DNA from: Escherichia phage 933W
Sequence record: AF125520
DNA: 61,670 bases
Strand: one strand, 5' to 3'
The position numbers are program-made. Shown in pieces: positions 45,001 through 48,000 of the stretch. Each line of letters opens with the position of its first letter. Positions within the stretch are counted from its first letter, which is position 1.

Positions 45001-48000
45001 TGGCGTTATCACCTCTTTTACATGGACGCGTTCTCTCACTAACTCACAGACATTTATTGATGTGCAGTCAGCCGATCATACCAGGAAGATTAAGAATCCG
45101 GCAGCTTCTGCCAGAACGGATATCAGGGCGAATTACTGGAGTCTGTTAGCGGGGCCTTCATGGCGGGTTAATCAGTACATGAGTTTATATGCGATGGCAG
45201 GGATGGGCGTTGCTAAAGTTAGCGCTGACCTGAAAATTAAGGACAATATTAACAGTAGTGGCGGATTTTCTGAAAGCAACAGCACGAAAAAAACCTCCCT
45301 TGCGTGGGCTGCAGGTGCACAGTTTAACCTGAATGAGAGTGTTACACTGGATGTGGCTTACGAAGGTTCCGGCTCTGGCGACTGGCGCACGAGTGGCGTT
45401 ACTGCTGGCATTGGCCTGAAATTCTGACCTGTATCCGGTAACCGTTTACTACCCGCTGTGATGGCGGGTTTTTTATTGCCCGTACAGGGCAAAAACCGTA
45501 AATTATGCGTGGGTGCCTTTCGGCTGATGGCTGGAGGGTGAACCTGAAGGCCTGATGTGGAAAGGCCCCGAGTCAACTTAACGTTAACCCGAGGCCCTAA
45601 CACTTCGTACCTTAAGCAAGTAGAAGGTTAGCGCCTCTCTGTAAAAGGAGTCAAGCGCTATGTCGCAAAAATCGCTTATCACCGTCACAATTTGCATGAC
45701 GGTTATCTTCACCATCTGGATGTTGCACGGTTCACTGTGTGAGTTCCGGCTGAATTTGTGGGGAGCGGAGTTTGCGGCGTTCTTACAGTGTAAGCAGTAG
45801 GAAAACCGCGACGGGGACGAGAGTCCCCGTCAACTGGTTGCTGAGGTTCAGCCGATATGGCACCCGTTTCAGGTGAGAGAATGAACGATAAAATTCTCTG
45901 GTATATGCAGCGTGTTGTGAGAAATTCCCGCAACCCTGAATTTATGAATGAAGTTAAAGACGCCTGCCTTAAAAAGCAGGCGTTTTGTTTTGAGGCACCT
46001 GATGGCTTTTTGGTGCTGCGTTCTGTGCTCAGTGCTGATGGTATCCCTTATGTTCTGGTGTTGCTGGGCGTGTGTACGGGGAGTAACAGCGTTGAGCGTT
46101 ACCTGCCGGAGGTGAAGACATTAACCCATCTGGCTGGCGGACGCTGGGCTGAGTTCCATACGGCAAGGCGGGGATTTATCCGGCTGGGAAAACGACTGGG
46201 CTTTGAGCGAATGCCGGATGATGAGGATGGCTTCATGGTGTTCAGGATAGCGGTCTGACTGCTACAGTTTTCATCATTGTGTTTAAACCAACATTGTAAT
46301 TCACATTCTGACCCTGCTCCGGCAGGGTTTTTTGTTATCCAGGGGGCCATTATGGGTGGAAGTAAAGGCGGTGGTGATACCAAAGTAAAACCAACAGCAG
46401 CGCAAATAGCACAGGAAGAAGTGGCCTGGAAAGGGTGGCAGGATTACAAAAATATCCTCCGCCCGGCTGAAGATAACTTCATGGAAAAGGTCGATGACCT
46501 GAACAGTGAGCAGCAGTACGACAATATTGCTGGCACCACAAATCTGGGGTATCAGAAACAGTTTGGCGAAGCACGGAAGGAGCTTGCGGGTAATCTTGCT
46601 CAGTCCGGCGTTGACCCATCCAGTGGTCGTTTTAATGCGGTAATGAATGCGAACCAGAGTGACCAGGTAACCGGGCAGATTGACACAACCACACGGGGGC
46701 AGGTATCGCAGGCAGATAAGTATGTTGCCGGGCTACAGGATGTTGCTGCTCTCGGTTCTGGTCAGAAGGCGGATGCGTTACAGAGTTTTAACTCTCTGGC
46801 AGACAGCAGTCTGGCAAAAGCTAAATCGGATGCACAGGCGGCGTTTACGAAACAGCAGGGGCGAGCCTCTCTTGTTGGCGCTGGTCTGGGTGCGGCAGGT
46901 GCATATGCGATGCATAAGGCTGGCGGTAGCGGAGGAAGTGGCGGTGCTAAAACACCTGGCACCGGCGCTAATGCCATTCAGCATCAGGCTCAGAACTGGA
47001 GACTGTAATTATGGAGTATGGCAAATACGAAACTCTCGCAAGGGCTGGTTATTCAGGAGCAGACCGCCCACAGGGTGACTGGCAGACGTCAGCAGCGCTG
47101 ACACGCCAACAATACGACGACTGGCGAACCAGATATTTGCCCCGCGTGGCAAGGCTGGCTGACCTTGGGGAGAACAACAGTCTGATGAATGCACAGCTTG
47201 CACGGGTGGGAGGCCTTGCCACTTCCAGTCTCCGTACAGCGCAGATGGCGCAGGATAACCAGATGGCGAGATACGGGGTAAACCGCCCGGATAATCCCGA
47301 CAGTAATACGCTGGGGTTACGTAATGCCCTGGCAATTGCTGGCGCGAAAAATGGTATCCGTGAAGCCGAACAGGATCGCCAGATGAATATTCTGACGGGG
47401 GCTTCTGCACCGGCAAGACAGAAACTGAGTGTTGGCGGCCAACTGGTGGCAGCGTAAGGGGGCAATATGGGATACGGTTTACTGGATATTGCAAATCAGT
47501 CGCGGCGTGAGGCATTACAGGGAATAAGTGACGCAGACAGACGACGTGAAGAAATTGAGGCTGCGAACAAACAGATGGCGGCGCAACAGAAAGCGCAGAA
47601 CAAGCAGAATATCGGTACGGGCATTGGTACGGGGGCGGCTATTGGCGCATCCGTTGGTGGTCCTGTTGGTGCTGTTGCTGGAGCAGTAATTGGCGGCATT
47701 GCTGGTTCTTTGTTTTAAGGAGTGGTGAATGAGCGGATTTGCACAGGGGTTACTTGCCGGATTCAGCACCGTTGACCAGGCAATGACCCGTCGTAAGGAG
47801 CTTGGTCTGCGTGAAGCACAGCTTGCCCGGCAACAGAAAAATAACGAGCGCGATTTTGAGTTTGCGCAGTCTCAGTTTGAACATAATAAAAACGTTGATC
47901 AGCGGAACTTTGATTACAGAGCCAAAGTTGACGACCGTAATTATGCACTGAAGGAGAGGGAGTTTAACGCTAACCAGAATTACCGGAATGCGTCACTGGG

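Follow-up and report, generated by a model that had tools for sequence, protein, structure and literature searches.

The sequence analysed here, 61,670 nucleotides (nt) of Escherichia phage 933W (AF125520; hereafter the window), carries a small plus-strand open reading frame (ORF) of 46 codons between lom and the next phage gene. This ORF is very probably the toxin gene of an intact type I toxin-antitoxin cassette of the hok/Sok kind, some 390 base pairs (bp) long and lodged as a moron between two genes of the phage. On nucleotide identity the window is a Shiga-toxin (Stx) phage of the Sp5/933W type (Sp5/VT2-Sakai-type Stx2), and positions 45430-45870 are 100% identical to VT2-Sakai/Sp5 and to many other Stx1 and Stx2 phages; 196 phage records match this interval, and in 194 of these the match covers 80% of the query or more. 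Read from 5′ to 3′, the locus comprises a candidate promoter, a structured leader with a putative antisense gene on its opposite strand, the toxin gene (hok), a stem-loop in the 3′ untranslated region (3′-UTR), and a 3′ element predicted to pair back to the 5′ end (Table 1).

The ORF begins with ATG, as the original prediction had proposed, and the AAAGGAG noted upstream of it lies at 45644-45650, leaving a spacing of 9 nt to the start codon. The further suggestion that the peptide echoes signature positions of Hok holds beyond chance. The peptide matches the Pfam family HOK_GEF (PF01848) with 33.2 bits (E 4e-8; gathering score 22) over profile positions 6-42 of 42, and PHROG 251 with E 2.8e-24. 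Aligned with Hok of plasmid R1 (30% identity over 44 amino acids (aa)), it keeps all seven residues that a survey of Hok proteins found to be more than 80% conserved: M1, C16, T18, L30, C31, E32 and E41 in R1 numbering align with its M1, C12, T14, L26, C27, E28 and E37. Given the Pfam and PHROG scores and the seven conserved residues, the resemblance is significant. The best NCBIfam model is that of HokA (NF007290), and HokA of E. coli K-12 has a similar C-terminal AAFL(A/Q)C motif; however, the score of 38.4 bits is far under the 89-bit equivalog cut-off, so that the window peptide is not a HokA orthologue. The Rfam and NCBIfam models built on other subfamilies likewise score the locus below their cut-offs. 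Among the 56 relatives collected, the full-length ones are nearly all 46 aa long, with C27 and C44 invariant, and in a set of 30 relatives L26 and E28, which flank the invariant C27, are nearly so. The median ratio of non-synonymous to synonymous divergence (dN/dS) is 0.26 over 171 pairs, indicating purifying selection, and comparison with the F723 allele gives about five synonymous and zero non-synonymous differences (dN 0, dS 0.20). The ORF, its family membership, its conservation and the selection acting on it are established here, and as judged from its sequence it is a real and intact Hok-family membrane toxin gene.

This gene is not new: RefSeq annotates it, an identical peptide has been reported as toxic, and it is an ordinary member of the Hok family. 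The product of the locus is identical to WP_000078907.1, a ‘Hok/Gef family protein’, and among 5,426 complete E. coli genomes 1,675 have a match to the locus. The ORF was left out when VT2-Sakai and 933W were first annotated; in phage records it goes by ‘MokW-like host killing’, ‘small toxic polypeptide’ or ‘host toxic membrane protein’. The first of these labels (PHROG 251, and records such as PV189404.1) sits on Hok toxins of Pfam HOK_GEF and not on Mok leader peptides, and is a misnomer that is spreading via Pharokka-type annotations. A literature search for WP_000078907 returned no match. In a 2025-26 preprint by Escalera-Maurer et al. (bioRxiv 10.1101/2025.08.07.668861), entry 72_1589 belongs to cluster 72, a ‘high-abundance cluster’ with members 72_1589 and 72_1621; this entry is the window peptide, residue for residue. 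According to the same text, 72_1589 was cloned under an arabinose promoter for a toxicity assay, and 42 of the 45 Hok homologues tested were toxic on induction, 72_1589 not being among the three exceptions named. The preprint deals with coding sequences only and expressly sets Mok, Sok and mRNA elements aside. The RNA anatomy of the cassette set out below is an addition to that coding-only analysis.

Copies of the cassette were gathered from five contexts: Stx podophages, where it follows lom; P2-like prophages and phages, where it follows ogr; IncI1 and other plasmids; a lambdoid prophage, where it stands between J and the tail-fibre gene; and the O157 urease island. Further copies came from E. 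albertii, C. braakii and Salmonella. By BLAST, the stretch that these share with the window is 45491-45865, and in the alignment the sequences part company right after GGCACCC. At the other end, TTGnnn, a 17-nt spacer and TAnAnT keep a constant distance to GGGTGCC in almost all of 24 contexts, although the flanks of these differ. We model the cassette as positions 45476-45865, within which most of the RNA architecture of R1 hok/sok appears to be present. The frame, the 46-codon length and the regulatory RNA elements are kept across phage, plasmid and chromosomal contexts. In Salmonella enterica the cassette is often tandemly duplicated, the copies lying about 490 bp apart and each having its own promoter, 5′ element (tac), Sok region, 46-codon hok and 3′ element (fbi). 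A scan of genome contigs found only seven loci, three of them in assemblies of Xanthomonas pisi, a Planococcaceae metagenome-assembled genome and Vagococcus sp.; these near-identical enterobacterial cassettes are most likely E. coli or phage DNA contamination.

The hok mRNA is predicted to be closed by a long-range helix joining its two ends. The 358-nt RNA 45511-45868 has a minimum free energy (MFE) of -155.4 kcal/mol (z = -6.5), and in the MFE structure the tac-like element pairs with the fbi-like element through 45511-17 with 45859-65 and 45520-27 with 45848-55, a closure described for the R1 hok mRNA. The same tac-fbi pairing is present in the MFE structures of all 21 intact homologues folded, and when 30,814 plus-strand windows of 42 nt drawn from the 61.7-kb sequence are ranked as partners of tac, the fbi site comes second (z = -4.5). 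The GGGUGCC of the 5′ element is invariant in 27 homologues. The start of translation is predicted to be masked twice. A local hairpin covers the Shine-Dalgarno (SD) sequence, and the changes found in its two helices (6 and 7) are G-C to G-U or compensatory; a 10-bp helix (helix 8, 45660-69/45771-80) joins the start-codon region to codons 38-41, with 98.9% of alignment cells paired and with its synonymous sites invariant although the family-wide dS is about 0.9. When the last 33 nt are removed, tac is predicted to refold onto 45557-69, a ucb-like element, with 45611-18 left unpaired in a hairpin loop and with the unpaired probability rising from 0.32 to 0.47 for the SD and from 0.24 to 0.56 for the AUG. 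Two of the four pairs of this tac/ucb stem show compensatory changes (UA to CG in six sequences, CG to GC in three).

A consensus structure of 74 pairs, computed with RNAalifold on a 27-sequence alignment, has 97.6% of its cells paired as against 39-45% when the partners are slid, and 16 compensatory pairs as against 1-8 in the slid controls; none of 500 shuffles reaches the observed value on four of five measures. Partial covariation of the predicted folds is established by these counts, the best-supported helices being the 3′-UTR stem, the tac/ucb stem and the helix between the start codon and codons 38-41. The first of these had been described in the original prediction as an 8-bp GC-rich hairpin just downstream of the ORF. 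The hairpin is there, but its stem has 9 bp, GACGGGGAC (45810-45818) pairing with GUCCCCGUC (45823-45831) around a GAGA loop; it is a conserved 3′-UTR stem of the hok mRNA. As a terminator for hok it was ruled out, no U-run being next to it on the plus strand; the scan found it terminator-like on the minus strand only, where an AAACC/GGUUU extension of the same stem is read.

The hok leader also contains, on its sequence features, a Sok-type antisense gene with its own promoter and terminal hairpin. The candidate promoter in the window consists of TTGACT, an 18-nt spacer and TAACCT; among homologues the -35 element is conserved as TTG(A/C)(C/T)(T/C), the spacer is 17-18 nt, and two Salmonella copies have TATCCT in place of TAACCT. 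The transcript predicted to start at about 45618 would have a 20-nt variable 5′ tail followed by a 16-bp hairpin, and a 71-nt antisense RNA folds with -34.5 kcal/mol (z = -6.5). In all 27 homologues the hairpin folds more stably as antisense than as sense RNA (mean difference -8.9 kcal/mol), and two near-fixed G-U pairs, present in 22 of 24 sequences, would be C-A mismatches if the sense RNA were the functional one. Four of its 13 pairs show compensatory changes. The Rfam family RF01794 (sok / CssrC), which covers a different hok subfamily, matches 45511-45673 on the plus strand over its full model length with 35.6 bits (E 4e-6).

Table 1. Positions of the cassette, its predicted RNA elements and related genes in the window
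Feature	Position	Strand	Remarks
lom	44693-45427		upstream of first terminator-like site
hok promoter -35, TTGCCC	45476..45481	+	overlaps end of lom terminator T-run; match by eye
hok promoter -10, TAAATT	45499..45504	+	conserved TA(A/G/C)A(T/A/G)T, 6 nt upstream of GGGTGCC
hok mRNA, minimal extent	45511..45865	+	putative 5′ end ~G45511; from similarity limits and fold
tac-like 5′ element GGGUGCCUUUCGGCUGA	45511..45527	+	predicted to pair with 45848-45865 (full-length MFE) or 45557-45569 (3′-shortened)
Sok-like antisense RNA, ~65 nt, predicted	45553..45618	-	putative ends; promoter just upstream; consensus hairpin
ucb-like element GUGGAAAGGCCCC	45557..45569	+	alternative tac partner in truncated fold
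24-codon GTG leader ORF, uncertain, not canonical mok	45557..45631	+	stop = invariant UAG in GGUUAGCGCC
Sok hairpin, predicted	45562..45598	-	16-bp stem, terminator-like, then UUUCC
Sok promoter -10, TAACCT	45625..45630	-	sense AGGTTA in 25/27 homologues
SD-masking local hairpin, AGCGC/GCGCU and CUCU/GGAG	45630..45659	+	full-length MFE and consensus fold (helices 6, 7)
hok Shine-Dalgarno, AAGGAG	45645..45650	+	read from sequence; GGAG nearly invariant among homologues
Sok promoter -35, TTGACT	45649..45654	-	overlaps last two bases of hok SD
hok-family coding sequence	45660..45800	+	ATG start, 46 aa plus stop; peptide MSQKSLITVTICMTVIFTIWMLHGSLCEFRLNLWGAEFAAFLQCKQ
Coding segment UUUGCGGCGU, codons 38-41	45771..45780	+	predicted pairing with start-codon region 45660-45669
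3′-UTR stem-loop	45810..45831	+	helix 14; 9-bp stem; 5/9 pairs compensatory
fbi-like 3′ element UCAGCCGAUAUGGCACCC	45848..45865	+	predicted to pair with tac; 3′ limit of inter-context similarity
ORF after hok (‘133-aa ORF’)	45857-46258	+	PHROG 610
hokW-sokW	58395-58784 (about)	-	Rfam sok 113.5 bits at 58610-58784; Takada primers
HokW coding sequence	58615-58460	-	hokW-sokW tac GCGGGTGCTTGAG and fbi CTCAACGCACCCGC visible outside this row's entry, in the locus as a whole

The arrangement resembles that of hok/mok/sok (parB) of plasmid R1. Both have a Hok-family toxin and a stem-loop right after the stop codon; both also have, as predicted here for the window copy, an antisense gene inside the leader whose promoter overlaps the region of the hok translation start, a GC-rich 5′ tac paired to a 3′ fbi, a tac/ucb alternative after 3′ shortening, and an antisense RNA of some 65 nt whose 5′ tail is single-stranded and which ends in a hairpin. 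They differ in that R1 Hok has 52 aa whereas the window peptide has 46, in that the R1 copy is on a plasmid and the window copy on a phage, and in that the latter has neither a mok frame reaching the hok SD nor, in its phage context, a terminator hairpin right after fbi. Modelled on R1, a constitutive promoter would produce a stable hok mRNA from about 45511. Pairing of tac with fbi would close this mRNA and leave the SD, the AUG and the antisense target base-paired, so that the closed form would escape both ribosomes and the antisense RNA. As the 3′ end is slowly trimmed, tac would become available to 45557-69, which would expose the target loop (45610-18) and loosen the translation start, and a short, unstable Sok-like RNA would pair with the leader and block expression, most likely by RNase III cleavage. 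If antisense synthesis were to stop, through prophage loss, transcription shut-off or prophage induction, the 46-aa Hok would be made, would insert into the inner membrane and would kill or lyse the cell. The transcripts and their ends, the processing, the action of Sok and the trigger we infer.

Several results weigh against such a reconstruction. All RNA features of the cassette are predictions, and the consensus structure was derived from the same alignment that was used for the counting. The tac-fbi helix (helix 1) is invariant and never covaries, and a permutation test on the variable part of tac-fbi, in which cognate were compared with non-cognate duplex energies, was not significant (p = 0.19); covariation for tac-fbi is therefore not claimed. 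A consensus promoter scan called none on either strand, and both promoters therefore rest on conservation and analogy, read by eye. At the gathering threshold of RF01794 (59 bits) Rfam recovers only the leader of hokW, the Hok gene at the phage's other such locus, with the window locus falling below it. The predicted Sok overlaps neither the hok SD nor the AUG, so the route by which it would block translation is unexplained. Directly after fbi the window phage has no plus-strand terminator, the next ones lying at 45960-45992 and 46310-46333, and the mRNA may consequently be much longer than modelled; in the P2-type context a terminator stands 22 nt downstream of fbi. The toxicity of 72_1589 follows by exclusion from the preprint text, and the cloned DNA was the F723 allele with a vector SD. 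Lastly, the window, like 13 of 27 homologues, has no ATG, GTG or TTG frame that could serve as mok and extends to the hok SD.

This last point bears on how the toxin would be translated. In R1, translation of mok was found to be needed at least up to the hok SD. At the canonical mok position, between the Sok hairpin and the hok SD, the window has no start codon, and some alleles have a TTG there that is not accompanied by an SD. As no mok frame extends to the hok SD, coupling to a leader is either absent or unconventional. We give somewhat less than an even chance to the first of these, in which the strong SD of hok itself would start translation as soon as the mRNA opens, and Sok would act at a distance, either through RNase III cleavage or through obstruction of a standby or unfolding site; IstR-1 acts at a distance in this way on tisB. 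Such independence from mok is consistent with the strong AAGGAG and its spacing, with the fact that neither the window copy nor half of the family has an ORF reaching the SD, and with a predicted masking of SD and AUG by conserved local and long-range helices and not by a leader frame. However, some homologues have a 42-79-codon mok-like frame that overlaps hok, so the ancestral state may be mok-dependent.

Unconventional coupling within the same cassette appears unlikely. Here the 24-codon GTG leader ORF would replace mok: a ribosome ending at its UAG (45629-31) would sit on the hairpin arm 45630-40 and free the hok SD, and Sok, complementary to the whole of the GTG ORF, would block it. The geometry is suggestive, with AAGG 7 nt upstream of the GTG and a stop codon that falls inside the invariant GGUUAGCGCC, on the 5′ side of the hairpin that masks the SD, 13 nt ahead of the SD and 29 nt ahead of the hok ATG. 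A leader ORF with a GATGTGG start ends at -31/-30 in 7 of 23 first-panel sequences, ends at -38 in four and runs into hok in five, and in R1 it is only translation up to the hok SD that matters. On the other hand, a non-start sequence replaces the leader start in all six Salmonella copies, the frame is unconserved and its stop varies between homologues, 13 of 27 homologues have no ORF reaching the SD, and the tac/ucb stem occludes the start in the very form that is supposed to be translatable. The upstream GATGTGG start was also considered as mok itself and rejected, as it is not kept in Salmonella.

The original prediction had left undecided whether the ORF is a second toxin or a decayed copy, and the conserved frame and RNA elements, the dN/dS and the identity with 72_1589 bear out the former and not the latter. 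Enteric genomes often contain degenerate hok loci (Fozo 2010), and decayed relatives of this very cassette exist: the copy on E. albertii plasmid pEA5_1 has a stop at hok codon 2 and a deletion in the coding sequence and has lost fbi, and a Salmonella copy with intact ORF and fbi has its 5′ part, including tac, replaced by unrelated sequence. A relic that is no longer expressed or toxic could also account for the missing canonical mok and the sub-threshold Rfam sok match. Unlike those relatives, however, the window copy is not decayed as far as its sequence can tell. Its 46-codon frame is intact behind a strong SD, it differs from the F723 allele by synonymous changes only, conservation extends to both promoters, tac, fbi and the Sok hairpin, and an identical peptide is reported as toxic in the preprint text; a silent remnant is accordingly very improbable. 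A chance ORF with a fortuitous likeness to Hok, to which its mere 46 codons and its omission from the early annotations might point, is already refuted by the above-threshold Pfam match, the PHROG match and a conserved frame at a locus found in so many E. coli genomes and phage records, and its probability is negligible.

The proposal that the ORF is a second, divergent Hok copy is upheld: on sequence comparison it stands besides hokW-sokW, which lies elsewhere in the window on the minus strand. That locus is identified as hokW-sokW by the primers and the 51-aa MKQQKAM... sequence given by Takada et al. 2021 (PMC8621323), where it is the experimentally studied Hok cassette of Sp5. The two loci share the phage, the family, the overall layout and an identical Sok -10 hexamer, TAACCT; in our reading of primer YO-421 of that paper, the AGGTTA at the same relative place in sokW is the sequence replaced in the promoter-less mutant. 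They differ in location and in 60%-identity cluster (35_712 for hokW, 72_1589 here), and HokW shares 37% identity with the 46-aa peptide over 35 residues. By our reading of its sequence, hokW has an upstream ATG (~58671) in frame into hokW. Non-cognate Sok/leader duplexes are predicted to be much weaker, at -39 and -62 kcal/mol versus -129 and -135 kcal/mol for the cognate ones. Two hok copies are reported for 3.5% of hok-carrying phages (bioRxiv 10.1101/2025.08.07.668861). Deletion of hokW-sokW alone halved phage release, and a contribution to lysis was reported; in the passages of PMC8621323 covered, hokW-sokW is the only locus deleted and the second one, 45660-45800, is not mentioned.

The surroundings of the cassette match the original prediction in part. 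It had placed lom, the small ORF and the following ORF in a block bounded by terminators, and a terminator scan finds both sites, at 45451-45469 followed by a T-run and at 46310-46329 followed by a T-run. Because lom precedes the first of them, however, only the hok cassette and the next ORF lie between the terminators. The start of this ‘133-aa ORF’ is probably ATG 45881, which would give 125 aa, because the PHROG 610 alignment begins only at residue 9; the shorter form is annotated in one phage record, and the fbi element of the hok mRNA extends over the first ATG (45857). Inside this ORF there is an extra terminator-like hairpin on the plus strand at 45960-45983, followed by TTTGTTTTG. Its 8-bp GC-rich stem (ACGCCTGC / GCAGGCGT) scores on the minus strand too, and the whole element, 45960-45992, falls at about codons 27-37 of this ORF, whose family (PHROG 610) is conserved in phages. 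The hok mRNA could really end here, or the element could be an attenuator.

Farther away, Rfam places STnc100 (207.7 bits, plus strand), AsxR (88.1 bits, minus strand) and three tRNA genes at 22777-23036 and 21120-21368, the usual block of small RNA and tRNA genes upstream of stx in Stx2 phages. Its match to the lambda cIII thermoregulator (88.5 bits), at 7899-7957 on the minus strand, shows that the lambdoid early-left region is on that strand. Close to the end of the window there is an sRNA-Xcc1 match at 61136-61224 on the minus strand (69.1 bits, threshold 53).

In sum, the locus is only mildly unusual, in that it has no mok frame and in that the functional study of Sp5 left this second copy in place. 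The cassette is sharply delimited, from promoter to fbi, and recurs as such in several contexts, and the apparent absence of mok in half of its relatives is a modest point in the regulation of hok. For the phage, the cassette may serve prophage addiction, help in lysis as reported for hokW-sokW, or exclusion of other phages. We advance tentatively, as a possibility that we ourselves regard as doubtful, that cluster 72 is mok-less, with Sok acting at least 27 nt upstream of a masked strong SD, and that the Sp5 copy is partly redundant with hokW-sokW. If so, redundancy would help to explain why deletion of hokW-sokW only halved phage release, and a double deletion would have a larger effect on lysis timing, prophage stability or the exclusion of other phages. 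The value of these results lies mostly in annotation and experimental design. Stx phages of the Sp5/933W type carry two unrelated-looking hok cassettes, and the sole functional study of Sp5 removed one of them; the phenotypes ascribed to hokW-sokW, in lysis and in phage yield, were therefore measured with a second toxin present.

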